From an uncultured Armatimonadetes bacterium (GTDB lineage Bacteria; Armatimonadota; Hebobacteria; Hebobacterales; Hebobacteraceae), in contig OY970296.1 of NCBI GenBank assembly GCA_963716175.1, positions 2,592,001 through 2,656,000 on the forward strand: a stretch of DNA of 64,000 nt. The letters run 5' to 3'. The notes under the pieces were generated by a model. The model worked only from the letters and a program-made list of their open reading frames with translations. It was not told the DNA's origin and ran no database searches. This document shows, piece by piece, positions 15,278 through 44,584 of this stretch. Made by a program: the position numbers and the translations under genes. Numbering within the stretch: the stretch's first letter is position 1; every line of letters begins with the position of its first letter.

Positions 15278-15301
15278 GGCCCGCCCTGAGCGAAGCGAAT
15301 G
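15278..15301 (-). repeat. 24-nt micro-insertion copy inside a GTAG-type hairpin
   Basis: Minus strand cattcgcttcgctcagggcgggcc, preceded by CC, within gtagggcaggtcgcggccc|tgcgctgc. Confidence 0.7.
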
Positions 15302-15320
15302 GGGCCGCGACCTGCCCTAC

Positions 15321-16547
15321 TCAGAGTAGGCGCGTGGACTCGCAGACCAGCCGCACCCGGTCCAGCGACGTGCCAGGGGTGAGCGGACTGCCTAAGGACA
15401 CGACGAAGTTGTCCCGCCCGGCGACTGCGATCTGACGCCGCACCTCGGCCAGCACCTCCTCATCGGAGGCCTGCTCCACGAGCATCGCGTCCATGTTGCC
15501 GAAGAGCACCCGATCGGGCCCCAGCGCTCGCCGCACCTCGGCCAGGTCAATGCCGTAGTTCTTCCGGTTCTCCTCGAAGCAGAGAGCGGTGAAGGGCAGC
15601 TCCTTGAGGCAGGGGAGAAACGGCATGAGATTGCCCGAGAAGTAGAGCACGGTGCGGAAGCCCAGCTCCTCGTAGCACTGAAGCGCTTGCCTGGTATACG
15701 GGAAAACGAACTCCTGGTACATCCTCGGGGAGAGGATGTCTGCGGAGGCCAGGCATTCCTCCACGAACATGATGGTGATACCTAGCTGCCGCTCGGCCGC
15801 CAGGCGAGCAGAGGGACGGGGAAGACGGTTCTCGAGGATGCGGTGCACCAGGTCGGGCGAGTCGCTCAGCGCGTACATCAGACCCTGGAATCCGAACAGG
15901 TCGGGCAGGCCGTTGTAGGGCGAGGTGCCGTTGGTGTAAAGGGCAAGGCCGTTCGGATAGTGGCGGGCCAAGCAGATGGCGAGCTCATATCCTTCTGACG
16001 CCGCGAGCTCGCGGGCCTGCTCCGGGGCCGGCTCAGGCACAGGCGTCAGGCGATGCATGGGCCGGGCGGCGGCGTCACGCACCTGCGAGGCGCTCTCGCT
16101 CCGATCCCACAGGTCGGACCAGGGCGTGGACTTCTCTGCCGCCGCCACGCTCTGCTCCGCCTCCCGGTTCGGGGGAATCCAGGACTCGTACCCATCCGCC
16201 GACAGCCAGAACAGCTCATCGCCCCGGCGCACCACGGCAGAGCCAGCAACGCTCGCCCGACTAGATAGGTAAGGCAGGGAGAGCCAGGCCGGCGGTGGAT
16301 AGGGGCCGTCCAGCATCTCGGTGTACAGCTCCCTCTCGATCTGGAAGTGCGTCTGATAGTCAACGGGGAGCAGGTCGGTGTTCGCCTGCGCCAATCGCGC
16401 CCGCCACTTGCGCCAGCGGGATTCCATGCGGTGGAACTGAAGCGGCCCCAGCATCTCGTAGACTGGGGCCACCGGGAGGTAAGGCGCAGGCTTCCCGGTG
16501 AGGACGCGGGTGATGGCATCGTCAGAGGCGAGGGGACCTGGCACCAT
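15321..16547 (-). CDS. URO-D / MtaA-like family protein (divergent)
   Basis: ILSPRMYQEFVFPY, LFGNMD, FVVSLGSP in the C-terminal half; start uncertain. Confidence 0.75.
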   Translation of the reverse strand: MVPGPLASDDAITRVLTGKPAPYLPVAPVYEMLGPLQFHRMESRWRKWRARLAQANTDLLPVDYQTHFQIERELYTEMLDGPYPPPAWLSLPYLSSRASVAGSAVVRRGDELFWLSADGYESWIPPNREAEQSVAAAEKSTPWSDLWDRSESASQVRDAAARPMHRLTPVPEPAPEQARELAASEGYELAICLARHYPNGLALYTNGTSPYNGLPDLFGFQGLMYALSDSPDLVHRILENRLPRPSARLAAERQLGITIMFVEECLASADILSPRMYQEFVFPYTRQALQCYEELGFRTVLYFSGNLMPFLPCLKELPFTALCFEENRKNYGIDLAEVRRALGPDRVLFGNMDAMLVEQASDEEVLAEVRRQIAVAGRDNFVVSLGSPLTPGTSLDRVRLVCESTRLL

Positions 16548-16564
16548 CGCTCCGGTTTCGCCGT

Positions 16565-17647
16565 TCACACCTGGATGGGATATGCGCCCCACCTCAGGGT
16601 GGCTTCGATCATGGCGCGGTAATTGGCGAGTGGGACATAGCTGGCGACGGAGTTGCTGCTGCCCACGCAGTAGCCGCCCCCGGGCCCGACCTCCCGAATG
16701 CGCTGCTTCACCTCGGCCTCGACTTGCTGCGGCGTGCCCAGGGTCAGGGTGTAGCCCAGGTCAATATTGCCGATGAGGGCGAGGTGCTGCCCCCAGCGCC
16801 GCTTCACTTCCACGATGTCCATGGCCTTGGGTTCGATGGGCTGCAGGGCCGAGATGCCGCACTCTACCAGGTCGGGGATCACCTCCCAGATCAGCCCATC
16901 GCAGTGGTAGATCAGAGGCAGGCCTCGACTCGCTGCCACCTCACCGTAGCGCTTGAACCATGGAAACAGCACACGTCGGTAGAACTCGGGCGACATGAAG
17001 AAGCCTTGGGCGTGCGCCAGATCGTCCGCCAGCCACAGCGCGGCCACTCCTGGCAGCGCGGCCGCCCGCTGGAACACCTGGAACAGGAAGCTGCCCACCC
17101 GCTCGATCACCCCCTCCACCAGGCCGGGATCATCGTAGAGCGCAAGGCACATGCCCTCGAAGCCCGTCAATTGGCGGCTGGTCTCGAGGATACCCCAGGT
17201 CCCGGTAGTCAGCCCCATCCCTTCCGGTAGCAGCTCGCGAGCGCGGGCTATGTGATCGTACTGCACCCGCCCGAGATCTGGCCACGGATATCGCTCCAGG
17301 TCTTGGCGGCTGGCAATCACTCCCCGATGCTCCTCCATCCATGCCTTCTCTACCGGGCCCGGCGAGTAGGCGCTGTAGGTGTCACGCGCCACGTGCCAGC
17401 CCTCCGGAAACAGGTGTAGGTACCAGGGCGCGAGGTGGATGTAGTCATAGCCGGCCGCGGCCCAGAACTCGACGTCGGCAGCGACGTCGTAGTCGTCGGT
17501 CCCCAGCAGCGAGTTCCCCACCGGCCGGCCCAGGAAGGCCTGCTTCACCGGCGGGTCCACCAGGAACTCGGAAAGCGGCACGCGATCCGGCTCTTGCCGC
17601 CGCAGTGCCGTCAGGAACCGGGCGATGTCGGGCTTGTCGTCAAGCAC
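16565..17647 (-). CDS. URO-D / MtaA-like family protein
   Basis: EPDRVP, ADDLA, YHCDG, GNIDL, GGGYCVGSSN. Confidence 0.88.
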   Translation of the reverse strand: MLDDKPDIARFLTALRRQEPDRVPLSEFLVDPPVKQAFLGRPVGNSLLGTDDYDVAADVEFWAAAGYDYIHLAPWYLHLFPEGWHVARDTYSAYSPGPVEKAWMEEHRGVIASRQDLERYPWPDLGRVQYDHIARARELLPEGMGLTTGTWGILETSRQLTGFEGMCLALYDDPGLVEGVIERVGSFLFQVFQRAAALPGVAALWLADDLAHAQGFFMSPEFYRRVLFPWFKRYGEVAASRGLPLIYHCDGLIWEVIPDLVECGISALQPIEPKAMDIVEVKRRWGQHLALIGNIDLGYTLTLGTPQQVEAEVKQRIREVGPGGGYCVGSSNSVASYVPLANYRAMIEATLRWGAYPIQV

Positions 17648-17733
17648 TGGCCCACCTCCCATGGACCATCCACACTTGGACCTCGCCCGCCCGAATCCCT
17701 GTAAGGGGACCAGAATCGTGGCCGGCCGCGGCC

Positions 17734-18912
17734 TCAGGTCTCGGCTGTCCGCAGCGCTTCCATGAGATCGGCGGCGGGCCGGCCCGCGCGGATCTCGTGA
17801 CTCATCGCCTTCAGCACCTGGGCGCTGTGGGAGAAGAACTGGCGATAGGCCGCGCAGAGATAGGAGACAGGCTTGCCGTCTTCCCCCAGATGGAGACGGT
17901 GCTTGGGGCAGTCGCCGCCGCACCAGGGGAGTACCGCGCACCGCCGGCACCGTTCTGAGAGGTCGGCCTTGGCCAGGCCGAACTCGCGCTGCGCGGGACC
18001 CTCTACCAGGGAGGCGAGGCTATCCACTGTCACTCGCCCGCGAAGGTGCGCCGGGTAGACGAAGTGGTCGCAGGCATAGAGATCGCCGGTGTGTTCGACC
18101 GCCAGGGCGTACCCGCAGGTCGGGGCGAAGACGCACTGCGACGGCGGCTCGCCCAGCCACACCGCCAGCGCTGACTCGAGAGCCTGCACGAACACCTGCC
18201 CCACATCGCGACTCGCCCAGTAGTCGAAGACCTCGCACAGGAAGCGGCCGAAGGCCTCCGGGCGCACCGACCAAGGGGTCACTTTCCGGCTGCGCTGCGA
18301 CTGCCGCTCCACGACCGGGACGAACTGCAGATGCGCCAGCCCCAGCCCGGTCAGGTGGCGGTAGACTGTCAGCGGGTGCTCAGCATTCGCGCGGTTGACC
18401 GCCACCAGGGCGTTGCACTTCACCTGGCGCCCTTGCAGGATTTCCAGCCCGGCCCGCACCCGACGATGGGTGGGATTGCCCCCCTGGTCGCGCCGGTAAC
18501 GGTCATGCAGCTCAGGAGGACCATCTATGCTGATCCCGACCAGGAACTGGTGCTCGGCGAAGAAGGCTGCCCACTCCTCATCTATCAGCGTGCCATTGGT
18601 CTGGACCGCGTTCACCACTCGCTGACCCGGCCGCGCGTATCTCCTCTGCAAGTCGAGCGCGCGCGCAAAGAAGTCCAGCCCGATCAGCAGGGGCTCACCG
18701 CCCTGCCAGCCGAACACCACCTCGGGAGCGGGGTTGGCCCGGAGATAGGCGGCGGTGACACGCTCCAGCGTTTCTCCATCCATGCGGAAGCTGCTCCCCG
18801 GATAATAGGCCGCCTTCTCCCGGTAATAGCAGTACTCGCAGGCAAGGTTGCAGGCCGCGCCCACTGGTTTGATCATGAGGTGGAAAGGCTTGGAGGCGAG
18901 GGAAGCGGTCAC
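17734..18912 (-). CDS. Anaerobic sulfatase maturase (radical SAM/SPASM, anSME)
   Basis: KPVGAACNLACEYCYY, WQGGEP, QTNG, YACDHF, CxxC..C.GDCPK. Confidence 0.93.
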   Translation of the reverse strand: MTASLASKPFHLMIKPVGAACNLACEYCYYREKAAYYPGSSFRMDGETLERVTAAYLRANPAPEVVFGWQGGEPLLIGLDFFARALDLQRRYARPGQRVVNAVQTNGTLIDEEWAAFFAEHQFLVGISIDGPPELHDRYRRDQGGNPTHRRVRAGLEILQGRQVKCNALVAVNRANAEHPLTVYRHLTGLGLAHLQFVPVVERQSQRSRKVTPWSVRPEAFGRFLCEVFDYWASRDVGQVFVQALESALAVWLGEPPSQCVFAPTCGYALAVEHTGDLYACDHFVYPAHLRGRVTVDSLASLVEGPAQREFGLAKADLSERCRRCAVLPWCGGDCPKHRLHLGEDGKPVSYLCAAYRQFFSHSAQVLKAMSHEIRAGRPAADLMEALRTAET

Positions 18913-18926
18913 GAGAGGGGCCTCGC

Positions 18927-21932: not shown

Positions 21933-21941
21933 GTCCTGGCC

Positions 21942-22925
21942 TCATTCCACTAGGGCGCGGCGCGCGTGCTCTGCCCAATCGGGATCCTCGAGCATGGCGC
22001 TCCCGACGGCGGCGAAATCGCAGTGACCCTCCGCGATCGCCCGCTCGGCATCGGCCGGATCACCGAGACGCCCGGCGACGATGATCGGCAGGTATGTGAG
22101 GGCCTTCGCGCGCTGCCCCAGCGACCTGTCATCCCCGAAATAGCCCCGGAAAGCGCCGTCGCCATCGGTCGAGAGGTGGAGCACGTCAACCCCCGCGCCC
22201 TCCAAGCCTTTGACAAGCTGCTCGAAGTCGGGCCGCGCGAACCCCTCGCGGATCTTGTTGAAGATGCTGATGCGGCAGATCAGCACCGCGCCCTCTCCCA
22301 GCCGCGACTTGACCCGCTGGCAGGTTTCCACCAGCATGCGCATCCGGCCTTCGATCGGTCCGCCGTAAGCGTCGTCCCGGAGGTTGCGCTGCAATGACAG
22401 GAAGGAGTCGAGCAGGAAGCCATGCGCCCCGTGAACCTCCACCGCGTCGAATCCCGCGGCCACCGCGCGGGCGGCCGCCTCCCCGAAGTGCCCCTGGATG
22501 GCCTGCATCTCCGCGACCGAGAGCGGCCGCGGCTCCGGCGCATCGTCAGAGGGCCGCACCGCTGATGGGCCCACGGTCGGAGAGCCAGACGCCTCGGGAG
22601 AGGCTTGCGGGCCGCCGTGTACCAGTTGGATAGCGGCCACTGCTCCGGCCTGGTGGAGGCACCCGGCGAGGGCCGATAGGCCGGCCTCGTGTCGCGGGCT
22701 TGCGGCCCCCAGGCCTCGCTCCCAGCATCTGCCTCCCTCATGCACATAGGTGGCCTCGACGATGACCATGCCAGTGCCCCCGCGTGCCCGGCGCTCGTAG
22801 TGCGCGATGATCTCGTCGGTAGCGCAGCCGCTGGTGTCGGCCCGCCCTGTCACCATGGGTGGCATCACCACGCGGTTGCGGAAAGTGAGGCCTTTGACCT
22901 GCATGGGAGAGAACAGAAGGCTCAT
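21942..22925 (-). CDS. NADH:flavin oxidoreductase (Old Yellow Enzyme family)
   Basis: NRVVMPPM, QLVHGG, GFDAVEVHGAHG, N.R.D.YGG. Confidence 0.92.
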   Translation of the reverse strand: MSLLFSPMQVKGLTFRNRVVMPPMVTGRADTSGCATDEIIAHYERRARGGTGMVIVEATYVHEGGRCWERGLGAASPRHEAGLSALAGCLHQAGAVAAIQLVHGGPQASPEASGSPTVGPSAVRPSDDAPEPRPLSVAEMQAIQGHFGEAAARAVAAGFDAVEVHGAHGFLLDSFLSLQRNLRDDAYGGPIEGRMRMLVETCQRVKSRLGEGAVLICRISIFNKIREGFARPDFEQLVKGLEGAGVDVLHLSTDGDGAFRGYFGDDRSLGQRAKALTYLPIIVAGRLGDPADAERAIAEGHCDFAAVGSAMLEDPDWAEHARRALVE

Positions 22926-22954: not shown

Positions 22955-22982
22955 AGTGGCAGGAGCCAAGCTCCTGCCCAAC
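22955..22982 (+). repeat. REP-like hairpin; empty-site form of the 24-nt insertion target
   Basis: agtggcaggagccaagctcctgcccaac; matches the flanks at 43481-43532 without the insert. Confidence 0.75.
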
Positions 22983-23023: not shown

Positions 23024-23047
23024 CTTCGGCTCCGCTCGGGGCAGGCC
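23024..23047 (+). repeat. 24-nt micro-insertion copy (intergenic)
   Basis: cttcggctccgctcggggcaggcc, 22/24 identical to the copy at 43501. Confidence 0.75.
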
Positions 23048-23117: not shown

Positions 23118-23903
23118 ATGCGCATCGGCGCCACCCAGATCTGCTTCTCCGATAAGTCTGTCAGCGACAGCCTCGCCTACGCCAAGGCCACCGGATACGA
23201 GAGCCTGGAGCTGACCGTCCACGCGAAAGGCGAACTCGACCCTGGAACCGACGACGCCTCCTTGCGCGGGATAGCGGGCGAGGCCGAGCGGGTGGGGATC
23301 GCCATCTGCTCGCTGGCCGCGGGGATGTGTTCGGGGTTCGCCTCGCCCGACCCGGCGGTGCGCGCCGGCGCCCTGGATGGCCTGCGCAAGTGCATCCACA
23401 TTGCCACCATGTTGGGGGCGGACACGATCCTGGTGCATCCCGGCCAGCTCACACCTCAGGTGCGCTATGACATCATGTACCAGAACGTGCAGGAGGCCAT
23501 GCGCAAAGTGGCGCCGGAGGCGGAGCGAGCACGCGTGTTCATCGGTGTCGAGAACGTCTGGAACAAGTTCCTGCTGTCGCCGCTGGAGGCGAAGCAGTTT
23601 GTGGATGAGATCGCGTCCGAGTATGTTGGGATCTACTTCGATATCGGCAACTTCGTGCCCTGGGCCTACCCCGAGCAGTGGATCGAAATCCTGGGCCGCC
23701 GGGTCAAGAAGGTGCACTTCAAGGACTTCCGTCGCAAGGGTCACCAGTTCGTCCCACTCCTGGAGGGCGATGTGGACTGGCCGGCGGTGATGAAGGCACT
23801 GCGGAGCATCGGGTATGACTCCGATGTCATCCAGGAGGTGGCCGGGGACGAGGCCGGCATGAGGGCGACCGCGGAGGCGATGCGCAAGATCGTGCGGATG
23901 TAG
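23118..23903 (+). CDS. Sugar phosphate isomerase/epimerase (hexulose-6P isomerase-like)
   Basis: ENVWNKFLLSPLE, YFDIGN, HFKDF, GDVDW. Confidence 0.9.
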   Translation: MRIGATQICFSDKSVSDSLAYAKATGYESLELTVHAKGELDPGTDDASLRGIAGEAERVGIAICSLAAGMCSGFASPDPAVRAGALDGLRKCIHIATMLGADTILVHPGQLTPQVRYDIMYQNVQEAMRKVAPEAERARVFIGVENVWNKFLLSPLEAKQFVDEIASEYVGIYFDIGNFVPWAYPEQWIEILGRRVKKVHFKDFRRKGHQFVPLLEGDVDWPAVMKALRSIGYDSDVIQEVAGDEAGMRATAEAMRKIVRM

Positions 23904-33512: not shown

Positions 33513-35754
33513 ATGTCCGAGATGAACGATGGCAGTCGGTTGCCGGCGCGGCTGGACTCATCCGAGTCGGCGTTGGTGGGGCCGGGCGGCCACGCCCTCG
33601 CCACCTTCGAGCCCGCGCCCTCGCCCATGCGCGAGTACGCCTACGTGTTCCTCCGCCGCAAGTGGATCGTGCTCTCCTGCCTGGCCGCCGTGTTCGGGCT
33701 CACGTGCCTGATCACCGCCACCAGCCCTCGCATCTACGAGGCCACCGCCTCCCTCCTGGTCAGCCAATCAACCGATAGCAAAGCGGTGTCGGCAGGCGAG
33801 ATGCCACCCATGATGGCCGCTATCGCCGCCCCGAACATCGAGACTCACGTCTCCCTCTTGCAGGGCGATCAGACCGCCCGCGAGACTGCGCAGTGGCTGA
33901 AGGAGCATGGCGGTCCGGCCTTCAGCCCAGAGAATGGTGAAGGCGGCGGTGCGCGCCAAAGCTGTGCCTCTGACTCAGTTAGTGCGAGTGAGCGGGCGCG
34001 CTCGTTCGCCGCGAGAGGCGCAGCAGATCGCCAACGCCGCCGCTCAGGCCTATGTCAGCATGAATCGCCGCCGCGCCCAGAGCTCATCCGAGAGCGCCAG
34101 CCAGTACCTGGCCGAGCAGCTGGTGGTGGCGAGGACCAACCTGACCGAGGCCGAGCGCGCCCTGCGGGCCTTCAAGGAGAAGACGGGCAGCGTCGCCCCG
34201 GATGGGGCCGCCTCGGACTTGCTGGCCCGGGTGGCCCTGCTCCGCGGGGACGCTGACAAGACCAAGGCCGACCTCGCCCAGACCCGGCAGAGGGGGAAGA
34301 AGGTGCAGTCCCAGCTCGCTCTGCAGAACCGCAGCATCGCGGTGGGCCGCATCAGGGACAACGGGGTGGTGCAGCAGCTCAGCGCCAAGCTGGTAGCGCT
34401 GCAGGGCGAGCGGCTGGCGGTCCAGGCGCGCTACACCTCCGCATTCCCCGGGCCCGTGAATCAGATTGACCAGCAGATCCGCATCACCGAGAACCAGCTC
34501 GCGTCACAGATCCGCAGCATTGTGGGCCAGGCCGGTGGTGACCTTGGGGTGCAGCAGATGCTGGCGGGCCAGCTCATCCAGGGCGAATCGGAGGTGGCCG
34601 CCCTCTCCGCCCGGTATCAGCAGCTCACCGCCGAGATGAGCCAGGCGCAGCGGCAGCTGCAGCAGGTCCCAGCCCGGCAGATTACCCTGGCCGGGCTGCA
34701 GCGACAGGTGGAGGTTGCCCAGAGTATCTACTCCGACCTGCTCAAGCGAAGCCAGGAGATCGAGGTGGGGCGGGTGATGGCTCTGGGCAACACCGATATC
34801 GCCGAGGCCGCCACCGAGCCCCACGCGCCGGTCAAGCCCAATGCTCCTCTGGATCTCGCCTTCGGGCTCTTGCTGGGCCTCGCCGCCGGGGTCGGGCTGG
34901 CCCTGTTGCGAGAGCAGCTCGACGACACGGTGCGGGATCTGGACGAGGTGGCTCGGCTGGTCGAGGCTCCGGTGCTGGGCATGGTGCCAGTGTTCGAGAG
35001 GAGAGACGGCGCGCCCACCCTGCGGGTGACCGGCTCCCCGGGCCGTGCGCTCGAGGCCTACCGCGCGCTGCGCTACAGCCTGGGCTTCGTGGTGCCAGGC
35101 ACTGGGTCGCGGGTGGTGTTGGTGACCAGCGCCGGCCCGCTGGAGGGGAAGAGCACCACCTCCATCAACCTGGCCATCGCCGCCTCCCTCAGCGGGCGGC
35201 GCGTGGTCCTGGTTGACGGGGACTTGCGCCGCCCCTCTCTCCAGCGCACGCTCCGGCTGGAGGGTCTGAGGGGTCTGACTGATGTGCTGGCGGGAGAGGC
35301 CAAGCTGGAGGACAGCATCCAGAGGCTTCCCAACGCCGATCTCCAGGTGATCACCGCGGGGACTCGCGCTCCCAACCCGACGGAGCTGCTGGATTCGGCG
35401 GCAATGCAGCGCACCATGCAGCAGCTGCGCCAGCAAGCAGATCTGATCGTCCTGGACAGCCCGCCGCTGCTGTCTGTGGCCGACAGCCTGGTGCTGGCCG
35501 GCTTCACCGACGCGGTACTCATGGTATGTGTGCCTGGGTCCTCCCATCGCCGCGCTCTGCGTCGGGCGCGGCTGCTGCTGGCGCAGACCGGGCGGTCCAT
35601 CTCCGGGGTGGTGCTCAACAAGGTAGAGTCCAAGCCCGGCTATGGCGACTACTACGGCGGCTACTACTCCTACTACCACTACTACGACGACCGCGAGCCC
35701 GAGCCCGAGGCCGCGGCGAGTGGCGGGCGCAGGCACGCCCGCCATAAAGAATAG
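33513..35754 (+). CDS. wzc: Wzc-like polysaccharide co-polymerase / BY-kinase; +1 frameshift at ~33933
   Basis: Wzz-type N-terminus, coiled coils, Walker A EGKSTT, DGDLRRP, DSPP, Tyr cluster YGDYYGGYYSYYHYY; removing one A at 33933-33934 fuses the two ORFs. Confidence 0.88.
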
Positions 35755-35882
35755 AAGCTGTTTCATAACCTTCCCAGAGGAGGTTATGAAACAGCACTGC
35801 ACAACGTCAGGCCGTGGCCGGCGCATTTCATGCGAGGGCGTGGTGCGGCCAGCCAGCAGGTAGGTTATGAAATGCGCTCTAG
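35752..35882. repeat. MITE-like element with internal and terminal inverted repeats
   Basis: Perfect 15-bp stem 35757-35771/35781-35795; 11-bp IR 35821-35831/35867-35877; ends TAGA..TTTCATAACCT / AGGTTATGAAA..TCTAG. Confidence 0.5.
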
Positions 35883-35986
35883 GCATCAGGGGGCGGGTTA
35901 GCAGGCTGGGAGCCTGTGCTGCCGGCAGACTGATCGGCAGGCAGGCGCATGCCCGACTTACAGGCGGGGATAGTTTGGGGTGAGGG

Positions 35987-37483
35987 ATGGTCGGACGGCG
36001 GTCTGTGCTGCTGCTGGTGATGGCTGACGCCTGCTGGATAGGGTCCACGCTGCTCGCGGCCTGGGCGCTGGACGGCTGGCGCCGCTCGCTACCCATGTGG
36101 CAGATGAACCCGGCTCATCTCACTCACCTGACCGGGGCGGTGGCGATCTGGCTGCTTGCGCTCTACATCTGCGGCGCCTATGAGCGCAAGTACCTGACGC
36201 TGAAGGGCCGAAACCTGAGCCTCACCCTATGCGGCAGCGCGGTGGGGACCGCCGCCACCGCGGGCAGCCTGTATCTGCTCCCTCAGTGGCACATGAGCCG
36301 GTTCGCTTTTCTCCTGCTGGGGATGGGAGCGGTGTCGGGTCTGGTTGCCATCCGCGCTATCTGGCTCGTTCACCAGCGGCGCATTCCCCTCCCCGCCTTT
36401 CTCGGGGTGGGCGACCCGGAGGTGCTGGGGGATATCTGGCTCGAGCTAACGCGTGTCACCGCGGTTCAGGGGCAGCTTCCAGTGGTCTCGCCAAACGGCC
36501 ACAGCCCCTCGGCTGCGCTCGGGGCAGGCCCGGCCCGCACGCATCCAGGTGTCTCCCTCTGTTCCGAAGAGGCCGCCCTCGCCGCGCTCGCGGCGCACCG
36601 CGGCGGGATGGTCGTGCTCAGCGATGGCACCATCCCCTCCTCGCAGGCCGCCTCCATCCTCAACCGAGCCAGCCTCTCCGGCAGCACCGTGGCAGACATT
36701 TCCACCTTCTATGAGATCTACACCGGCCGCGCGCCCATCTTCCGCACCGCCGGCGGCTGGCTCTTCCGCGCTCAGCACCATGCGCCGGACACCCTGGCCT
36801 ACTACAGCAAGCGGCTCTTCGACGTGACCGTGACTCTGCTCTTGCTGCCAGTCGCGGTCCCGGTGCTGGCGCTGGCCGCGCTGGCAATCAAGCTCACATC
36901 TCCAGGACCTGTGTTCTACCGACAGCGCCGGATCGGGAGCCGAGGGCGTGAGTTCTCCCTGGTCAAGCTGCGCTCCATGTCCGTGGACGCGGAGAGGAAC
37001 ACCGGGCCGGTGTGGGCGGGGGAGGAGGATAGCCGCATCACCCCGGTGGGCCGGGTGCTGCGCGCCACCGGCATTGATGAGCTGGCTCAGCTTTGGAATG
37101 TGCTGCGAGGTGAGATCAGCCTGGTGGGCCCCCGCCCGGAGCGACCGGAGGTGGTGCGCGGCATAGTGCAAGAGGTGGCCCCCTACCTTCAGCGCCACGT
37201 GGTGCCGGCCGGGATCACGGGGTGGGCGCAGGTTCATCGGGGGGGAGACAGCAGCCTGGAGGATGTGGTGGACAAGGTCCGGCTCGATCTCTACTACGCC
37301 CGCAACTTCTCGCTCTGGTTCGACATCGTGATCCTGCTGCGCACATTCCAGATGCTGCTGGCGCATGCCAAGCCAGCCCCTACCGCCACGGTTGGGCAGG
37401 AGCGGGCGCTCCTGCCACGGTCGGGCGCTTCCCCGCTCCCGGCCTCAGTCGGCCTTGGTTCGGGAGGCAGGTCCGATGGCTGA
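35987..37483 (+). CDS. Polyprenyl glycosylphosphotransferase (WcaJ/WbaP-like sugar transferase)
   Basis: N-terminal TM helices; KRLFD, KLRSM, RIT.VG..LR..GIDEL.QL.NVL.G..SLVGPRPE, GITGWAQV. Confidence 0.93.
   Translation: MVGRRSVLLLVMADACWIGSTLLAAWALDGWRRSLPMWQMNPAHLTHLTGAVAIWLLALYICGAYERKYLTLKGRNLSLTLCGSAVGTAATAGSLYLLPQWHMSRFAFLLLGMGAVSGLVAIRAIWLVHQRRIPLPAFLGVGDPEVLGDIWLELTRVTAVQGQLPVVSPNGHSPSAALGAGPARTHPGVSLCSEEAALAALAAHRGGMVVLSDGTIPSSQAASILNRASLSGSTVADISTFYEIYTGRAPIFRTAGGWLFRAQHHAPDTLAYYSKRLFDVTVTLLLLPVAVPVLALAALAIKLTSPGPVFYRQRRIGSRGREFSLVKLRSMSVDAERNTGPVWAGEEDSRITPVGRVLRATGIDELAQLWNVLRGEISLVGPRPERPEVVRGIVQEVAPYLQRHVVPAGITGWAQVHRGGDSSLEDVVDKVRLDLYYARNFSLWFDIVILLRTFQMLLAHAKPAPTATVGQERALLPRSGASPLPASVGLGSGGRSDG
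36507..36530 (+). repeat. 24-nt micro-insertion, in frame inside the sugar transferase
   Basis: cctcggctgcgctcggggcaggcc after CC; adds 8 codons (PSAALGAG). Confidence 0.75.
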
Positions 37484-38936
37484 AGCCCTGAAGGCGGGCC
37501 GAGGCCACGCCGCGGCCACGGCCATGCCCAGCCGGGAGGCGCGCCCCTATCCGAGTGCCAGCCTGTTCGCTGCCTGCGGGGTGCTGGCGCTCGCAGCCGG
37601 GGCGGGGCTGCTCGCCGAGACCGCCGACCCCCTTCCCTTCGGCCTCCAGCACCTCAGCGGGCCGACGCTTGCCATCTCTCTTTCCGCCCCGCTCATCTGC
37701 CTGATCTGGCCCGAGCTGGCGCTGCCAGTGATCATCATCGGCGCCGAGCTACTCGACCGTGAGTTCGGTGGGGGCCGAGTGCGACATCTGGTTTTCATGA
37801 AGCTGGCCCTGCTCATCTTCGCGGCGGTGGGAGTGCTGCTCAAGACCTGGGGGCAAGGGGGAAGGATGCCGCGCGTCAAGACTCCAGCTGACTTCCCCGC
37901 GGTGCTGCTGGCCGGGTACACTGCGCTTTCCGCTGCCTACGCCTACCTGGTGGTGGGCCGGGACCTGGATCTGGTGGCCGTTGCCGGCTACCATCTCTCC
38001 CAGTTGGCGCTTTACCACTTCCTCGTGACCACCACCCTGGGGCGGGAGCAGGCGTTCCGGCGGGCCGGGCTGATCGTGGCCGGCCGCGCCTTGCTCATGG
38101 TGGTGCCGAGCATTCTCGGCGGGGGCCGGCATGGTGGCACGGGCACCACCTGGCTGATCGTGCTGCTCTGCTACGCCTTGCTGCAGAGGACCAACTGGGG
38201 GGTTCTCGCCTGGGTCGCGTTGCCCCTGGCTATGCTCGACACTGTGACCTGCGGGTTCCGCACCCTGTGGGTCACCGTTGGTGGGCAGCTGGCCTGGCTG
38301 GCCCTGGCTGGGATCTGGCTGCGGCTGCACAGGCTGGCCGCAGTCGCGGTCTTCGTCCTGGTGGCAGGGGTGGGCGGCGTCTTCCTCGCCCTGGGTCACC
38401 CCGGCCTCCTGGCCGGCGTTCCCTCCGCGGTGACCCTGGACCGCTATCAAGGCGGAATGCTGCTCGGCGGCTACCGGGTGCCGGAGGCGGTGATCGGGAT
38501 CGAGTCTGCTCTCGAGCACCCGCTTCTTGGCCAGGGCATGGGCTACCAGACGCAGCTTCGCTGGGTGCAGACCATGGGCAATATGGCGGTCGGCCCCATC
38601 CATCATATCTACTACGTGAGCTACCTCTCCAACGAAGGCCTGGTGGGGCTGGCGCTTGTCCTGTGGTACTTCGGCGCCGTGCTCTTCTCCCGCCCCGCGA
38701 GGCAGTTGCGAAGACTGGCGGCTGTGGAACCGTGGGCGGCAGTCGCCCTCGGGCTGCAGGCTGCGTTCTTCGGGGCGATCCTGGGAGCCTTTCTGTCCGG
38801 CCCCCCGGATGGGCATTGGACCTGGGGGATGTTCGGCGCCGCCTCTCTCCTGCCCGCCACCTGGATTGCCTCGCGGCCGGCTGGTGGCGGCACCCGGCGG
38901 GAGTGGGCACGCCCGCCCTACCGCAGGGCGGTGTGA
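37476..38936 (+). CDS. O-antigen ligase/polymerase (Wzy_C) family membrane protein
   Basis: Many TM segments; HPLLGQGMG..H..Y...L...GLVGL pattern. Confidence 0.78.
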   Translation: MAEALKAGRGHAAATAMPSREARPYPSASLFAACGVLALAAGAGLLAETADPLPFGLQHLSGPTLAISLSAPLICLIWPELALPVIIIGAELLDREFGGGRVRHLVFMKLALLIFAAVGVLLKTWGQGGRMPRVKTPADFPAVLLAGYTALSAAYAYLVVGRDLDLVAVAGYHLSQLALYHFLVTTTLGREQAFRRAGLIVAGRALLMVVPSILGGGRHGGTGTTWLIVLLCYALLQRTNWGVLAWVALPLAMLDTVTCGFRTLWVTVGGQLAWLALAGIWLRLHRLAAVAVFVLVAGVGGVFLALGHPGLLAGVPSAVTLDRYQGGMLLGGYRVPEAVIGIESALEHPLLGQGMGYQTQLRWVQTMGNMAVGPIHHIYYVSYLSNEGLVGLALVLWYFGAVLFSRPARQLRRLAAVEPWAAVALGLQAAFFGAILGAFLSGPPDGHWTWGMFGAASLLPATWIASRPAGGGTRREWARPPYRRAV

Positions 38937-38941
38937 AGGCT

Positions 38942-40306
38942 ATGGGCAGAGACGCCGCAGCAGACAGCCTGGCTGGAGACACGGCGAGTGTGGTCGCCTC
39001 TCAGGCGGTGGTGATGGTTGCCGGCCTAGCCGGCTCGATCATCACCGCCCGCGTGCTGGGGCCTTCGGGGAGAGGAGTGCTCTCGCTGGTGACCTTGTGG
39101 GTGCTGCTGCTCGCCATCGCGGCCCCCTTGAGCTGTGGCTACGGGCTCATCTATCACCTGCGGAACTCCAGCACTGACTTCCCGCAAGCCCTCTCCACCG
39201 CGCTCGGGCTCTCCCTTGGGTTCGGGGCGATGGCGGTCGGCGTGTCGCTGCTGGGCGGGCATCTGCTCCGCCACAGCCTGCTGCGAGGCGTGCCCTTCAG
39301 CTATCTACTCCTGGTCTCCCTCGCCCTGCCGGCTGCCATCTTCGTGGGAGTATCGGGGTTGGCGTTGATCGGCGCCGGGCGCGTGAAGCAGGTCTCGACC
39401 CTCACCGCGGTCAACTCGGGGTTGGGGTTGGGGCTGCTCTGCCTGTTCCTGTTCGCGCTGCGCCTGGGCCTGCTGGGCGCCGTCATTGCCTCCGCCATCA
39501 CCTCCGTGCTGGGCGCGGCGATTGCCATCGCCTGGCTCTGGCCGCACTTGCGCTGGCGCCGCCTGATGAGGGCCGGGCACTGGTCCTCGGTGGTCTGCTT
39601 TGGCCTCAAGACCCACGGCGGCGCAGTGGCGCAATTGGCGAACTACTCCCTCGACCGCTTCCTGATCAACCTCTATCTGGGGCCGACCGCGGTCGGCATC
39701 TACAGCATCGCCGGCCTGCTGGCCGAGCGCTTATGGGTGCTGCCGGGAGCGGTGCAGACGGCGCTCTATCCCCGCACCGGGGGCGAGGCCCGAGATGACG
39801 GCGAGCTCACGGCGGCTGCCTGCCGCAAGGCCCTCTGGCTGATGGCCGGCGCTTGTCTCGCCGTCGCAGCCGCGGGACCCTGGCTCATCAGCGCTCTCTT
39901 CGGCCCCGATTTCTCCGGCGCCGCCAGACCCCTGCTGATCCTCCTGCCGGGGGTGCTGTTCCTCAGCGCGGGCAAAGTCATGGTGCCCTATATCCAGAAT
40001 CGCGGCCGGCCGCTGATGGTCACCTATGTTCCCCTGGGATCGCTGGTCCTCACCCTCAGTTTCAACCTTCTGCTCATTCCCAGATGGGGCATCTCGGGCT
40101 CAGCGGCCGCCTCCACCCTCGCCTATGCCGCCTATGGGATTGCTCTCACCGCTGTGTTCGTCCGGCTCTCCAAGCGGAGAGTGGTTGACCTTATCAGATT
40201 CCCCTTCTCCGACCTGATGGCAGCCAGGCGGCTGCGCCTTCGCCTACAGGCCCGTCGTCGGGCGCCCACCTCCCAGGCCGAACCCGCACCAATCAGGGGG
40301 AAGTAG
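38942..40306 (+). CDS. Oligosaccharide flippase (Wzx)
   Basis: ARVLGPSGRG, DRFLI..YLG..AVGIYS, NLLLIPRWG..G.A.A. Confidence 0.88.
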   Translation: MGRDAAADSLAGDTASVVASQAVVMVAGLAGSIITARVLGPSGRGVLSLVTLWVLLLAIAAPLSCGYGLIYHLRNSSTDFPQALSTALGLSLGFGAMAVGVSLLGGHLLRHSLLRGVPFSYLLLVSLALPAAIFVGVSGLALIGAGRVKQVSTLTAVNSGLGLGLLCLFLFALRLGLLGAVIASAITSVLGAAIAIAWLWPHLRWRRLMRAGHWSSVVCFGLKTHGGAVAQLANYSLDRFLINLYLGPTAVGIYSIAGLLAERLWVLPGAVQTALYPRTGGEARDDGELTAAACRKALWLMAGACLAVAAAGPWLISALFGPDFSGAARPLLILLPGVLFLSAGKVMVPYIQNRGRPLMVTYVPLGSLVLTLSFNLLLIPRWGISGSAAASTLAYAAYGIALTAVFVRLSKRRVVDLIRFPFSDLMAARRLRLRLQARRRAPTSQAEPAPIRGK

Positions 40307-40307
40307 C

Positions 40308-41276
40308 ATGCCTCGCGTATCTGTGGTCATCCCCACCTACGACCGAGCGGACCGGGTCCAGGAGGCCGTTGACAGCGTGTTGGCACAGACCTATCGCGAC
40401 TTCGAGATCGTCGTGGTGGACGACGGGTCCACCGATGAGACCGGGCGCGCGCTGGCGCGGTACGGCGATCGCATCCGCTACCTCTGGCAGCACAACCGGG
40501 GTGCGGGCGCGGCGAGGAACGCGGGCATCGCGGCGAGCGGCGGGGAGCTGATCGCGTTCCTGGATTCCGATGATCTCTATCTGCCGCAGCGTCTGGAGGT
40601 AGCGGTGGCCGTGCTGGACGCCCACCCGAGCTTCGGGGCCAATTACGTAGATGCTCGCATCCTGGATGCCTCTGGCCGGCTGTGGGTGCGCAGTCACCTG
40701 GAGCGATGCGGCAGCGCCCCTTCCGGCTGGATCTTCGATGCCCTCCTGCGCCGGCAGCTTCTCACCTGCAACACCGTGACCGTCAGGCGGGAAGCGATGG
40801 CTCGCTCGGGCTGCTTCGGTGAGGAGTGCTTCAGCGGCGAAGACACTCGCTTCTTCTGGCGCCTTGCCCGCGTCTGCCAGATCATCGCGCTGCCGCAGGT
40901 GTTGGTGGTGGGGCGGGAGACGCGGGGCAGCCGCTCTGACTTCCGCCAGGGGCGGGAGCGTCACACCGAGCTGCTGGCAGAGTGGGCGCGGGGAGAGGAG
41001 GGGTTTCTCAGGACCTGGGATGACCTTTCCGGCCGGCAGAAGACGCGGCTGGCGCGGCGCATCTGGGGCCTCCATCACCAGCGCGCGGGGCTGCTGTCGA
41101 AGCTGGGCCGGGAGGGGGAGGCGCACGCCGCCGCTCGCCAGGCAAACGCCATGGCCCGAGAGTTTGGCCTATTCCTCCCCGGCGCGAGGGCGATGCTGAG
41201 CAAGCTCGTCCCTCTGGTGCACAGGCTCCCTCTGTTCTCCTGGCGTCCGCCAGGCGCAAAGGCGGCCACGCCATGA
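40308..41276 (+). CDS. Glycosyltransferase family 2
   Basis: VSVVIPTY, VVDDGSTD, ARNAG, FLDSDD. Confidence 0.93.
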   Translation: MPRVSVVIPTYDRADRVQEAVDSVLAQTYRDFEIVVVDDGSTDETGRALARYGDRIRYLWQHNRGAGAARNAGIAASGGELIAFLDSDDLYLPQRLEVAVAVLDAHPSFGANYVDARILDASGRLWVRSHLERCGSAPSGWIFDALLRRQLLTCNTVTVRREAMARSGCFGEECFSGEDTRFFWRLARVCQIIALPQVLVVGRETRGSRSDFRQGRERHTELLAEWARGEEGFLRTWDDLSGRQKTRLARRIWGLHHQRAGLLSKLGREGEAHAAARQANAMAREFGLFLPGARAMLSKLVPLVHRLPLFSWRPPGAKAATP

Positions 41277-42301
41277 GGACAGGTCTGGTCCAGGACACCG
41301 TCTCGGTGGTTATCCCTGCCTACAACTGCGCCGATCTCGTCGGCGGCGCGATCCGGAGCGCGCTGGAGCAAACTCACCCTCCTCTGGAGGTGATTGTGGT
41401 TGACGATGGCTCGACGGATGGGACCTGGGAAGTCGTCAGGCAGTACGGCGCTCCGGTGCGCGCGCTGAGACGAGGGCACGCCGGGGTGGCCGCTGCTCGC
41501 AACGCTGGTGTCGCGGCTACTCAGGGCCGCTGGATCGCGTTCCTGGATGCCGATGATCTCTGGCACCCCAACAAGACGGAGCGCCAGCTCGCAGTCCTGC
41601 AGCGCGCAACGAGTGCCGCCTTCTGCCTTGCCGGCTACCAGTACTTCCTCCCGATAGTAGGAGGCGAGCCCCATGTGGTGAGCCGCGGATTGCCCGTGAT
41701 CGAGGACGATGATAGCGGCGCGCTAAGACATCTGCTCACCACCGGGTTCTTCAACATATCCAGCCTGTTGGTGCGTTGGGACGCGCTCGCAGCGCCTCAG
41801 TGGTTCACCTATCCGCGCCCGTGCGAGGACTTCGAGTTCTCGCTCCGCCTCTCTTGCGCACATGCTGGAGTGGCCGTGCCGGAGGTGCTGGTGTCCAACC
41901 TCTATCACCGCGGCCACCTCGAGTACGACATGGTCCGGGGTCATCAGCTCCGCGCGCAGTCCCTCGCCACCTGCCTCGGCTCGCGAGCGTGGCCCGATCG
42001 GGAGCGCAAGCTCTTCCGATGGGCGTTGGCGCGCGAGCGCTATGCTCTTGGCTGCGAGTTGATCAAGCGCGGATACCGCTGGCAGGCGCTGGCACCCCTA
42101 CTGCGTGCCCTGGCTTGCCCGCGACTGAGCCTGAAGGCCAGCTTGCGGCTAGCGAGCTGCGCCTTGCCGACCAAGCTGGCCGCCAGACTGTGGCCCTACC
42201 AGTATCGCCTGGAGAGGGACTATCAACGGGCGGCCGCGGCTGCGAAACGGGTCGCGCGGCGCGGCCGCGCCTCCATGGCCATGCCGGGGCGGAGTGCCTG
42301 A
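41273..42301 (+). CDS. Glycosyltransferase family 2
   Basis: VSVVIPAYN, DDGSTD, FLDADD, ED motif. Confidence 0.92.
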   Translation: MRTGLVQDTVSVVIPAYNCADLVGGAIRSALEQTHPPLEVIVVDDGSTDGTWEVVRQYGAPVRALRRGHAGVAAARNAGVAATQGRWIAFLDADDLWHPNKTERQLAVLQRATSAAFCLAGYQYFLPIVGGEPHVVSRGLPVIEDDDSGALRHLLTTGFFNISSLLVRWDALAAPQWFTYPRPCEDFEFSLRLSCAHAGVAVPEVLVSNLYHRGHLEYDMVRGHQLRAQSLATCLGSRAWPDRERKLFRWALARERYALGCELIKRGYRWQALAPLLRALACPRLSLKASLRLASCALPTKLAARLWPYQYRLERDYQRAAAAAKRVARRGRASMAMPGRSA

Positions 42302-42302
42302 C

Positions 42303-43223
42303 ATGGCCAGAACGGCGGTGATCGTCCCCTGCTATAACTCCGAGCGCTACCTGCGCCCGGCGGTCGAGAGCGCCCTGGCTCAGGAGCAGCAGGACTGTGA
42401 GATCCTGTGCGTTGACAACGGCTCCTCCGACAGCACCCTGGCGATCCTCGAAAGCTATGGAGGCCGGGTTCGTGTGATCCACGAAACGCGGCGGGGCGCG
42501 CCCTGCGCCCGCAACGCTGGGATTCGCCAGGCCGACTCCGAGTTCGTCGCCTTTCTTGACTCCGACGATTACTGGGAGCCGGAGAAGCTGGCGCGCCAAT
42601 TGGAGGTGATGCGATCCCGGCCCGAGGTGGGCCTGGTGGCGACGGATTTCTGGGTGCGAACTGCGGGGTCGCGCGGAGAGCGGACCCTCGTCCGCTGTCC
42701 TCGCTCTGATCACCTGCGTGCGCTGTTCTGGGGATGTTGTCTCCACACCAGCACCTTGCTCATGCGGCGAGAGGTGCTAGACGAGGTGGGGTTGCTGGAT
42801 GAATCGCTGCCCATGAGCGATGACTACGACCTCTTGCTTCGCATTGCTGCGCGTTACCCGATCGCCACCGTGCCCGCGCCGCTCTCCACCTATCGGCTGC
42901 ACGAGGGCAGCCTCTCGCTGCGCAGCTTCGAGCAGACCATCGCCTGCACCGACCGCGTGATCACCTCCTTCTGTCAGCGCCATCCCGGGTTCCGGCGCCT
43001 CGCACCCAGGCGCAGGGCGCAGGAGCGGGTCCGCGTCGCTCGTCTACTGCTCACCCGCAACCGGGTGCTGGCGGCGCGGCTGAACTGGGAGGCGTTGCGA
43101 CTCGACCCCGGCCAATGGCAGGCCGGCCTGGGCCTCGGGCTGTGCGCGCTGCCGGCTCCCTATGGGCCGCTGCGCAAGTGCTCGCGGCTGCTTTCCGGGC
43201 TGCGCGCGGAGGCATGCAGATGA
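42303..43223 (+). CDS. Glycosyltransferase family 2
   Basis: VIVPCYN, DNGSSD, FLDSDD, DDYD. Confidence 0.92.
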   Translation: MARTAVIVPCYNSERYLRPAVESALAQEQQDCEILCVDNGSSDSTLAILESYGGRVRVIHETRRGAPCARNAGIRQADSEFVAFLDSDDYWEPEKLARQLEVMRSRPEVGLVATDFWVRTAGSRGERTLVRCPRSDHLRALFWGCCLHTSTLLMRREVLDEVGLLDESLPMSDDYDLLLRIAARYPIATVPAPLSTYRLHEGSLSLRSFEQTIACTDRVITSFCQRHPGFRRLAPRRRAQERVRVARLLLTRNRVLAARLNWEALRLDPGQWQAGLGLGLCALPAPYGPLRKCSRLLSGLRAEACR

Positions 43224-44584
43224 CCGCGCCGACGGGTGTGGAGCATGGCACGCAACGGCAGGAGGCAAGCTCCCTTCGACTGCGCTCAGGGCAGGCCTGC
43301 CCAGCCGGAGAGCTGCCGGCGCAGGTGGTGATGGTCTCCGCCCTCCCCTGGGCCGGGGTGCCTCATCGCCAGCACGAGCTGGCGGCCGGCCTGGCTAGGC
43401 GCCTCGATTGCATCTATCTGGAGCCACCGCGGGGGCCGAGTTGGCGCGCGCGTGGGATGGTGACAGAAAGCCCGGGAGCAAGTGGCAGGAGGCAAGCTCC
43501 CTTCGGCTTCGCTCAGGGCAGGCCTGCCCAACTGGGCGAGGGCCCGGAGTTCGGCGGGGAGGGACCCGCCGCGCGGCCGCGGGTGGCGCGCACTGCAACG
43601 CCTGTGCCCAAGCGGCTCTGGTATCTCTCCGCCGCCGCGGACAGGCTGCGATTCCGCCTCGCCTGGCAAGCTGTGGCGAGAGACCTGGCGCAGACTCCCG
43701 GTCGGCCGCGGCTGCTGTGGGTGGATGGGGGCAGTAGCGCCCCGGCCATCACGGCCGTGCCCCACGACCTGCTCGTCTACGACTGCGTTGATCTGGACTG
43801 GGCCTATTCTCACTTCGCCCCGCGCCGCGCCGCGCTGCGCGCCTGGCATGAGCTGCTGCTGGCACGGGCCGATCTGGTGTTCTTCTCCATGGGCGCCCTC
43901 TGCCAGGAACAGCAGGCCCGGCGAGGTGGCTGCCACTTCGTGCCCAATGCTTGCAGCCAATCTCACTTCGCCGCCGACCTGGCATGCCCGGCGCCCCTGC
44001 GCCCACTCCCATGGCCCCGGCTTGGATTCGTAGGAGCGATGCTCGCCAGGCGCTTCGATTGCGACCTGATCGCCAACCTCGCTCGCCACCACCCGGAGTG
44101 GCACTTCCCATTGGTGGGAGAGGCCGACCAGGCGGTGCGGGCCGCACTCGCCGGCCTGGAGAACGTGCATCTCCTGGGCCGGCAGCCTCACCCCGAGATG
44201 CCGGCTTATCTCGCCCACTTCGATGTCTGCCTGCTCCCCAACCGCGTGGACACCGAGCTTAGCTACTGTTTTCCCAAGAAGCTCTGGGAGTATCTGGCGG
44301 CCGGCAAGCCGGTGGTCTCCACCGCCATTCCCGAGGCGCTTCCGCTGCAAGGCCTGGTCCGCGTCGGGCACACCCGCCAGGAGTTCGCGCGCCAGGTGCA
44401 GGCGGCGCTGATGGAGGAAGCTGACCCCGCGTCTGCCGCACAGTCGCGGGCCAGGCGCCGCGAGCTGGCGCAGGAGAATACCTGGGACCAACGCGTGGAG
44501 CAGATCGTCCAGATTCTGCGTGTCGAGCTGGGCCGGCGCGGCATCGTGCCCCGCCCTGTGGACGGGGAGAGCCATCATGCCTGA
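43220..44584 (+). CDS. GT-B (GT4-like) glycosyltransferase
   Basis: VYDCVD, ADLVF, FDVCLLP, PKKLWEYLAAGKPVVST. Confidence 0.88.
   Translation: MTAPTGVEHGTQRQEASSLRLRSGQACPAGELPAQVVMVSALPWAGVPHRQHELAAGLARRLDCIYLEPPRGPSWRARGMVTESPGASGRRQAPFGFAQGRPAQLGEGPEFGGEGPAARPRVARTATPVPKRLWYLSAAADRLRFRLAWQAVARDLAQTPGRPRLLWVDGGSSAPAITAVPHDLLVYDCVDLDWAYSHFAPRRAALRAWHELLLARADLVFFSMGALCQEQQARRGGCHFVPNACSQSHFAADLACPAPLRPLPWPRLGFVGAMLARRFDCDLIANLARHHPEWHFPLVGEADQAVRAALAGLENVHLLGRQPHPEMPAYLAHFDVCLLPNRVDTELSYCFPKKLWEYLAAGKPVVSTAIPEALPLQGLVRVGHTRQEFARQVQAALMEEADPASAAQSRARRRELAQENTWDQRVEQIVQILRVELGRRGIVPRPVDGESHHA
43257..43530 (+). repeat. Two 47-nt direct repeats (43257-43303, 43484-43530): REP hairpin carrying the 24-nt insertion, inside a CDS
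   Basis: 45/47 identical; translated in different frames (SSLRLRSGQACP and APFGFAQGRPA). Confidence 0.85.

Follow-up and report, generated by a model that had tools for sequence, protein, structure and literature searches.

Mobile G+C clusters of yeast mitochondrial DNA are palindromic, GC-rich cassettes of ∼30 to 50 nucleotides (nt) that are present or absent at given sites, sometimes in coding regions, and are accompanied by short duplicated target bases; we know of no enzyme that moves them. Rickettsia palindromic elements (RPEs) are palindromes of ∼100 to 150 bp restricted to Rickettsia, and the small dispersed repeats (SDRs) of Nostocaceae reportedly measure 21 to 27 nt and are said to be nested within themselves. 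PMC2884548 describes repeats some 20 bp long that might be mobile, and PMC5861425 reports SDR5 inserted inside HIP1 and SDRs confined to Nostocaceae. According to PMC3733652, repetitive extragenic palindromic sequences (REPs) are known inside open reading frames (ORFs), with variable or complex loops, and RPEs are selfish in-frame repeats in genes that probably still encode working proteins; Additional file 3 of that paper, on REP-encoded residues in ORFs, may hold related cases. Here, we describe a 24-nt unit that occurs five times in a 64-kb stretch of DNA from an uncultured Armatimonadetes bacterium (the window, G000:C1:2592001-2656000; the genome, G000, is a single contig of 4.56 Mb with 66% GC, and the names of its protein homologs point to Armatimonadota). 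As described in citing papers, the SDRs (Elhai et al. 2008, Genome Res 18:1484) are the closest published idea. A literature search for the DNA or peptide strings of the unit gave one unrelated match and found no paper that contains them, most subscription journals being outside its reach.

We propose that the unit is a discrete insertable cassette, copied into many sites, which would be mobilized in trans as single-stranded DNA into C-rich sites. We assign this whole reading a probability of roughly 0.6; its insertion-cassette part is much firmer than the route of insertion. Its behavior is that of an insertable DNA element, among the smallest known.

In the window, a scan with the 24-mer pattern of an earlier note on this DNA, with up to 3 mismatches allowed, found 4 matches versus 0.01 expected, and none of 100 shuffles reached 4. 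The fifth copy listed by that note, at 15278, is diverged yet genuine, so all five stand (Table 1). Genome-wide, an iterated weight-matrix scan of G000 recovered 89 copies versus 4 in the reversed sequence used as a control, and another scan recovered 62 versus 1. Across the 89 copies, information content is 0.1 to 0.3 bit in the flanks and 0.7 to 2.2 bits across a block of ∼26 nt, which extends from 1 base before CCTTCG to 2 bases after CAGGC. The core of the unit, CTTCGRCTNCGCTCAGGGCAGG, is ∼22 nt long, and CC on both sides brings the net gain to 24 nt; two positions, R and N, vary freely. A second variant of the unit ends in GGGTRAAC, followed by TCCG.

Among the 89 copies, 19 lie in the loop of REP-A (GGCGGGCATG...CATGCCCGCC-CTAC), 7 in the 3' arm of REP-D (GGGCAGGTCGCGGAC^CTGCCCTAC), 4 in the 3' arm of REP-C, 5 in a GTCATSCTGAGC...GAAGSAT hairpin, and 7 immediately ahead of a second CTTCG...CTCAG word. 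The other 47, some of them REP-like, are elsewhere; they include a sixth class, "other GGCGGGC-type REP," that was too loose (it caught the window copy at 36507) and was merged into this remainder.

Sites with and without the unit fix its length. The earlier note had measured the insert as 24 nt from one filled and one empty REP-C hairpin, and this pair holds up: 27 of 28 flank positions of the filled site (43481-43532) are identical in the empty one (22955-22982), and the filled site has exactly 24 extra bases. When both 13-nt flanks of 66 of the 89 sites (score of ≥24) were searched separately and their spacing was tabulated across the genome, two peaks appeared, one at the filled value (31 loci) and the other exactly 24 nt below it (104 loci, REP-A for the most part). 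The fixed length and boundaries expected of an element are thus seen genome-wide, as information rises and falls within ∼26 nt and the second spacing peak falls exactly 24 nt below the filled value.

At least five hairpin or repeat contexts hold the unit and also have copies without it, which are shorter by 24 to 25 nt where pairing is cleanest. Clean pairs, 24 nt apart, come from REP-C and REP-D; in these, the empty site reads ...CC directly followed by TGCCC and the filled site reads ...CC[CTTCG...CAGGCC]TGCCC. Filled and empty REP-A differ by a net 24 nt, and the GTCATSCTGAGC hairpins differ by 23 to 24 nt. In a composite repeat of ∼170 nt, locus L064 equals locus L062 plus 25 nt, the unit being the sole difference, and the insert directly precedes a similar CTTCG...CTCAG word. 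The composite repeat itself (L062 and L064; G000:C1:1157350-1157750 and 4004350-4004750) comprises a GTCATCCTGAGCG..AGCGAAGGATC hairpin, a GCCGT..ACGGCGGGATTC stem, a GATTCTTCGC...GCTCAGAATGACA hairpin, and an end, GACTTTGCGGTCAC; modules resembling it also occur in G005 and in loci of Acidobacteriota and Kiritimatiellae.

The junctions recur as well. In five filled/empty comparisons (REP-C, REP-D, an FGGY kinase gene, a Bac_transf gene, and an activase gene), CC or CCC stands both directly before the core and at its end. The earlier note had likened this junction to a 2-bp duplication; the recurrence of CC is borne out, and a 22-nt element with a 2-bp duplicated or shared CC and a 24-nt element beginning or ending in CC fit equally.

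Insertion affects the host hairpin. The empty REP-C site folds into a 9-bp hairpin (−10.7 kcal/mol; z, −4.3) that none of 200 shuffles matches, and filled REP-C sites fold no better than shuffles (z, +0.4 and +0.8); therefore, the insert splits and disables the REP-C hairpin. Related hairpins of G000 with a CTTCG...CTCAG core show compensatory changes in the outer stem (GATC/GATG, 8; GATT/AATG, 7; GATG/CATG, 3), and the wider CTTCG...CTCAG family is therefore structured, even if the 24-mer alone is not so predicted. A longer palindromic repeat, GGGCCCGTCTGAGCAGTTGCCTGAG-CTTCGCCC...GGGCGAAG-CTCAG-TAG, is present at ∼20 loci (e.g., G000:C1 9187-9246, 196132-196191, 330493-330552, and 671887-671946) and looks like an insertion-sequence end or another structured repeat.

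Copies inside genes could be compared with orthologs. Genes were placed by a codon-usage scan and crude gene calls, and Pfam puts several copies inside known domains; 13 copies of G000 lie well inside genes. The earlier note held that the unit parasitizes REPs and adds 8-residue loops to proteins, which the empty REP sites and exact 8-residue gaps in orthologs support. It had named two outcomes that would refute it, orthologs that all contain the segments and copies that lack a fixed length or boundaries across the genome, and both checks came out in its favor. MnmA of G000 and of a 98% homolog reads CPGIR-SPRLGSGQ-ACCG, and this insert has no counterpart in 15 of 17 homologs. At the same loop, the MnmA homolog P0018 (69% identity) has an unrelated 16-residue insert. 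In the Bac_transf protein, the 36507 copy is an 8-residue insertion in the linker ahead of the catalytic domain; the gap is of exactly 8 residues in 9 of 11 homologs at 55 to 62% identity, 9 in one, and 10 in one, and three distant homologs have unrelated residues at the site. By inspection, removal of the 24 bases leaves a stretch as long as that in the homologs. An 8-column gap is also found in 11 of 11 relatives of the FGGY kinase, including a 55% ortholog of G005, and in 10 of 10 informative relatives of the BcrAD/DUF2229-type activase.

Whole REPs bearing the unit are likewise found in genes. AroA carries a 22-residue insert, composed of an entire REP-A plus the unit, that is not present in 9 of 10 same-family orthologs; the tenth, from a different genus (G006; locus L016, G006:C91), has an independent GTAG-headed REP in the opposite orientation, which adds 13 residues to the same surface loop. 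This loop is a repeated landing site or a tolerated one. The GT1 gene that holds the 43501 copy had no ortholog close enough among the relatives, and its homologs come from a larger protein search: P0242 (56% identical) has a 27-column gap (∼20 query residues) over TESPGASGRRQAPFGFAQGR, covering REP-C with its unit, and P0241 (99%) carries the same REP-C and unit insert.

In all 13 internal coding copies, the forward strand of the unit is the coding strand, and the five "antisense" calls all lie 33 to 98 nt from a crude gene end. Two of the three antisense frames of the unit are open; under random orientation among stop-free frames, 13 of 13 sense copies would have a probability of ∼0.6^13 = 0.001 (hand arithmetic). 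The sense frames encode PFGxAQGR, LRLxSGQA, and PSAxLRAG. The unit survives in genes as an 8-residue loop because it measures 24 nt and has no stop in any of the three sense frames.

The AroA, FGGY, and activase inserts are not common to G005, the closest relative searched. Since G005 lacks these inserts though it has 31 copies of its own, the insertions postdate the split from G005. A reciprocal test with G005 (22 copies in 20 loci, 17 with a spanning open frame) gave 2 tblastn matches to G000, neither of which covered the unit, and yielded no case within a CDS of G005.

The distribution of the unit is patchy. Among 31 relatives, 18 have at least one copy of a 19-nt core (≤1 mismatch), with counts of 45 for G000 and 31 for G005; three genomes aside, the reversed control gave 0. 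Within the host phylum, sampled evenly, 14 of 201 genomes have an exact copy, led by G000 (28), G005 (15), G092 (14), G018 (8), and G017 (6), and the reversed control is 0. All 14 fetched copies of G092 lie in a REP family of its own (TCGGGCT^GGAAGCCCGA-CTACGCG), with empty copies nearby, and 13 are of the same variant.

A scan of one genome per species found the exact 24-mer at at least 124 loci, and by hand arithmetic <0.1 match would be expected by chance for 22 fixed bases in ∼1.2e12 positions. The matches listed come from Acidobacteriota (most), Chloroflexota, Bacteroidota, Patescibacteria, Nitrospirota, Verrucomicrobiota and Kiritimatiellae, Gemmatimonadota, Alphaproteobacteria, Dormibacterota, Latescibacterota, and Binatia and include the isolates Edaphobacter aggregans DSM 19364 and Aequorivita sinensis. 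Flanks at these cross-phylum loci are unrelated and are often lineage-specific hairpins. Across phyla, 22 of the 24 positions are under strong sequence constraint. In viral contigs, the unit occurs at 35 loci.

Several further occurrences deserve mention. A Saprospiraceae copy looks in frame within a propeller-repeat gene. The Pseudanabaena galeata plasmid pPg_02 (L246) has three copies of a 16-nt core, in both orientations, within a 110-nt stretch (1505-1613) inside an annotated DEAD/DEAH helicase coding sequence (CDS), and a Trichlorobacter match from the plasmid search (24 of 26 bases) lies, by annotation, inside a transposase CDS. Matches in a RelB/DinJ antitoxin gene of Lactobacillaceae plasmids extended over only 21 to 24 nt (E, 0.9 to 3) and were treated as chance. 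In four sediment and wetland metagenome runs, contig depth over window positions 43216-43700 was 80 to 160, rising to 300 to 1,226 at 43510 in three of the four; since many unrelated contigs share the REP-C and unit segment, the unit is abundant in these habitats.

We suggest the following course of events. The unit would have entered new sites many times, independently, in this lineage, while staying near letter-perfect across distant phyla. It would preferably land behind a run of C residues within an arm or loop of small hairpin repeats (the three GTAG-type REP families, the GTCATSCTGAGC...GAAGSAT hairpin, and the composite repeat), splitting and inactivating these hosts, and occasional landings in genes would be tolerated as an 8-residue surface loop. 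A putative trans-acting, sequence-specific enzyme may copy or move the unit as single-stranded DNA into C-rich targets exposed in stalled or hairpinned DNA; the varying R and N positions would not be read by this enzyme, and only copies that retain the recognition sequence of such a selfish element would propagate. We infer that the unit is nonautonomous and that its mobilizer lies elsewhere.

Several observations weigh against this proposal. The earlier note had looked to strain polymorphism and to candidate nuclease or HUH genes flanked by the unit, and neither was observed. In four metagenome runs, contigs of 98 to 99% similar strains cover the 36507, 43274, and 43501 copies with no gap, and no movement is seen; because these strains carry the copies, the three insertions predate strain divergence. 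G000 has five Y1_Tnp (RAYT-type) matches, with no unit within 5 kb of any of them, as computed. All matches to other candidate families in G000, namely, GIY-YIG (4), IS110 (11, of which 8 exceed the cutoff), and serine recombinase (7), are in long frames, and none is within 5 kb of a unit, distances being judged by eye from coordinates; no TnpB zinc ribbon was found in G000. Across the 31 relatives, Y1 matches and the unit show no association: genomes of family f3 have 3 to 13 Y1 matches each, with a copy of the unit in only 1 of 12, and G001 and G004 have 5 and 4 copies and no Y1 match (81% completeness). The unit with 2 to 3 flanking bases has no fold above shuffles on either strand (DNA z, +0.31/+0.29; RNA z, +0.76/−0.33), so a hairpin substrate is unsupported by energy. 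The REP-A junction is not clean, as filled and empty sites differ at 3 of the 5 loop bases next to it, and replication-strand bias is weak (41 of 66 copies; P = 0.06). MTTB, whose relatives are 2 to 4 residues shorter in a variable loop, and Lhr-C, whose single ortholog is 3 residues shorter, are not clean 8-residue cases. Finally, copies can spread as whole REPs, given that most sit in REP families (14 in one family in G092), and independent insertions of the unit must therefore be far fewer than 89.

Other observations came from the mobilizer search. Two Y1 genes are flanked by empty REP-A or REP-C: that at G000:C1:962134-962391 has REP-A flanks, and in one of these REP-A copies the loop is a different one of 31 nt; that at G000:C1:1199920-1200165 has REP-C flanks, and one of these REP-C copies carries a GTCGCC...GGCGAC hairpin nested in the loop. 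In G000, REP loops accept several kinds of insert besides the 24-nt unit. The IS110-type (DEDD) matches include those at G000:C1 816029, 2788245, and 4048462 and at five other places; three have equal scores, which suggests recent copies, and that at 4048462 is 2 kb from the RAYT gene at 4050831.

The alternative that fares best, though we consider it unlikely, is that the unit is a functional module, such as a protein-binding site or a small structured RNA or DNA, that is carried by REPs and spreads only with RAYT-mobilized REPs, solo copies being decayed REPs. The contexts favor it: 42 of the 89 copies lie in recognizable REP, hairpin, or tandem settings (19 REP-A, 7 REP-D, 4 REP-C, 5 B-type, and 7 tandem), some of the other 47 are REP-like too, and the orientation of the unit relative to the GTAG head is identical in REP-A, REP-C, and REP-D. 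The single REP family of G092, the REP-flanked RAYT genes of G000, and the compensatory changes in the CTTCG...CTCAG hairpins point the same way. However, the bare unit, devoid of REP arms, is an exact 8-residue insert in four genes, and with at least five unrelated hairpins as its hosts in G000, and further lineage-specific ones in other phyla, the unit itself must have entered repeatedly. A carried module also sits poorly with insertions that ruin the host REP fold and with Y1 matches that do not track the unit, and Rfam finds only a tRNA in the window (gathering score) and nothing in ten unit-bearing loci (E up to 1).

Template switching or microhomology repair at stalled hairpins, with the C-run or the CTTCG word as microhomology to another copy, would dispense with a dedicated enzyme. 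We regard this explanation as improbable. It would account for the CC or CCC at both junctions in the five filled/empty comparisons, for the composite-repeat insert directly before a similar word, for the prevalence of hairpins among the sites, and for the mobilizer gene search finding none in G000. Yet two switches on 2 to 3 nt of homology are not expected to repeat the same 24-nt boundaries, nor to keep 22 positions constant across phyla while two float, and the solo gene copies are tens of kilobases or more from the nearest other copy. Patchiness among relatives with similar GC and REPs fits an invading, dying-out element better than a universal repair error.

It is very improbable that the unit is a footprint left by the excision of some larger insertion sequence with ends CCTTCGRCT and CGCTCAGGGCAGGC, the variable N marking the join. 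The freely varying N near the middle of the unit and the extra hairpins nested at the N position in other phyla and in related hairpins would suit such a footprint, but G000 has only 8 orphan right halves per strand, with no convincing left-half pairing within 6 kb, and a long element bounded by the halves is seen at none of the loci read. A chance or compositional artifact of a genome with 66% GC and many spurious ORFs overlapping real genes, or an assembly artifact, is ruled out by the shuffle and reversed-sequence controls (4 window matches versus 0.01 expected; 1 versus 62 and 4 versus 89), by the same copies in independent metagenome contigs and a 98% homolog, and by exact copies in isolate genomes of other phyla.

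The surroundings of the five window copies are as follows. The 15278 copy sits between convergent MTTB-like and URO-D-like genes, in a hairpin at ∼15272-15320 with its GTAG head on the minus strand and flanks of gtagggcaggtcgcggcc / ctgcgct. Next to the 23024 copy, the Oxidored_FMN gene, on the minus strand, ends at 22925. In the long AP_endonuc_2-type ORF, the Pfam domain begins at residue 162 and the ATG at 23118 is preceded by ggagg, which resembles a ribosome-binding site; we thus place the start at 23118, 71 nt downstream of the copy, which is probably in the 5' leader, outside the CDS.

The earlier note had counted three copies inside CDSs. This is upheld for 36507, in the Bac_transf gene, and for 43501, where the entire REP-C hairpin with its unit is inside the GT1 CDS (∼43325-44584), and does not hold for 43274, upstream of the GT1 start. 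The GT2 stop is at 43223, and the GT1 start, at ∼43325 to 43331, is placed by P0242, which aligns from MVMVSALPW; because P0242 begins at residues encoded from ∼43325, the 43274 copy is in the spacer and not in a CDS. The public gene call P0241 extends through this copy as SLRLRSGQA. The copies at 36.5 and 43.3 to 43.5 kb lie in an exopolysaccharide-type cluster at 33907-45515 (GNVR/ParA-like tyrosine-kinase-type protein, Bac_transf, GT2, GT1, and GT2).

TABLE 1 Unit copies and other features of the 64-kb window, in window coordinates
Feature	Positions	Strand	Mismatches to 24-mer pattern	Context
Diverged 24-nt unit	15278-15301	Minus	4 substitutions versus consensus CCTTCGGCTTCGCTCAGGGCAGGC; position-weight score, 24.8 bits	In REP-D-type hairpin
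Empty REP-C hairpin, GGCAGGAGC-CAA-GCTCCTGCC	22955-22982	Plus		Unfilled counterpart of both REP-C copies at 43.2-43.5 kb
Solo unit	23024-23047	Plus	0	Spacer between divergent Oxidored_FMN and AP_endonuc_2-type genes
Unit	36507-36530	Plus	1	In Bac_transf (polyprenyl glycosylphosphotransferase) CDS 35987-37483, read PSAALGAG
Unit	43274-43297	Plus	0	3' arm of REP-C hairpin, ∼43257-43303; GT2-GT1 spacer
Unit	43501-43524	Plus	0	3' arm of second REP-C hairpin, ∼43484-43529, read PFGFAQGRP
tRNA gene	60326-60399	Minus		Sole Rfam match in the window

If the proposal is correct, a 24-base sequence would itself be the evolutionary unit, far below the size at which mobile DNA is usually sought. It would account for short peptides that recur as a class in predicted proteins and for part of the diversity of REP loops and arms, and it would represent selfish DNA that supplies ready-made 8-residue loops to MnmA, AroA (with a REP), a sugar kinase, and a glycosylphosphotransferase. 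For annotation, units may extend false ORFs, as in the P0241 gene call through the 43274 copy. More tentatively, and with the balance somewhat against it, the unit could represent a pan-bacterial class of mobile elements as small as such elements can be (22 nt and a junction of 2 nt), with no gene and no evident hairpin, read at 22 of 24 bases by a putative enzyme that spreads horizontally or is widely conserved; such a class would colonize and disable REPs and add 8-residue loops to essential enzymes in many lineages. Small indels in bacterial proteins would then have a general source that has been overlooked. Near-identity across phyla would make the putative enzyme tractable, and its presence should predict copy number.

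Comparison with known elements sets the unit apart. Like REPs and REPINs, it is short, high in copy number, and mostly intergenic, and its hosts are true GTAG REPs. Unlike REPs, the unit has no GTAG in its conserved block, the GTAG belonging to the host REP-A, REP-C, and REP-D arms; it is not a palindrome, does not fold above shuffles, and interrupts REP stems, whereas REP-C itself folds (z, −4.3). No RAYT adjoins it, and Y1 matches do not co-occur with it across the 31 relatives. We therefore rejected the unit as a GTAG-type REP, as it lacks the palindrome, the GTAG, the flanked RAYT, and RAYT co-occurrence. We also rejected a miniature inverted-repeat transposable element (∼50 to 500 bp, with terminal inverted repeats), because the unit measures 24 nt and the sequences at its ends, CTTCG... 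and ...CAGGCC, do not form inverted repeats; as to a target duplication of that type, the CC or CCC at both junctions in five comparisons is the same as would be left by an element beginning or ending in CC, and the composite-repeat difference is 25 nt.

RPEs share with the unit the in-frame insertion into otherwise intact genes (8 residues for the unit, ∼20 with a REP), whereas the unit is only 24 nt long, has no significant fold, and occurs across phyla. The yeast G+C clusters and the unit are both short GC-rich presence/absence cassettes, but the clusters are mitochondrial, palindromic, and longer. SDRs, as described in citing papers, resemble the unit in being very short, dispersed, present in many copies, and proposed to be mobile (the unit has 24 nt net, a ∼26-nt block, and 89 copies) and in nesting in other short repeats, the unit having five host contexts with empty counterparts. 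In contrast to SDRs, which by those descriptions are confined to Nostocaceae, the unit is found in many phyla, and exact 8-residue insertions in conserved enzymes are seen for the unit. The unit differs from known elements in combining this size with the absence of any palindrome, in its exact 8-residue insertions into conserved enzymes, and in its identity across phyla.

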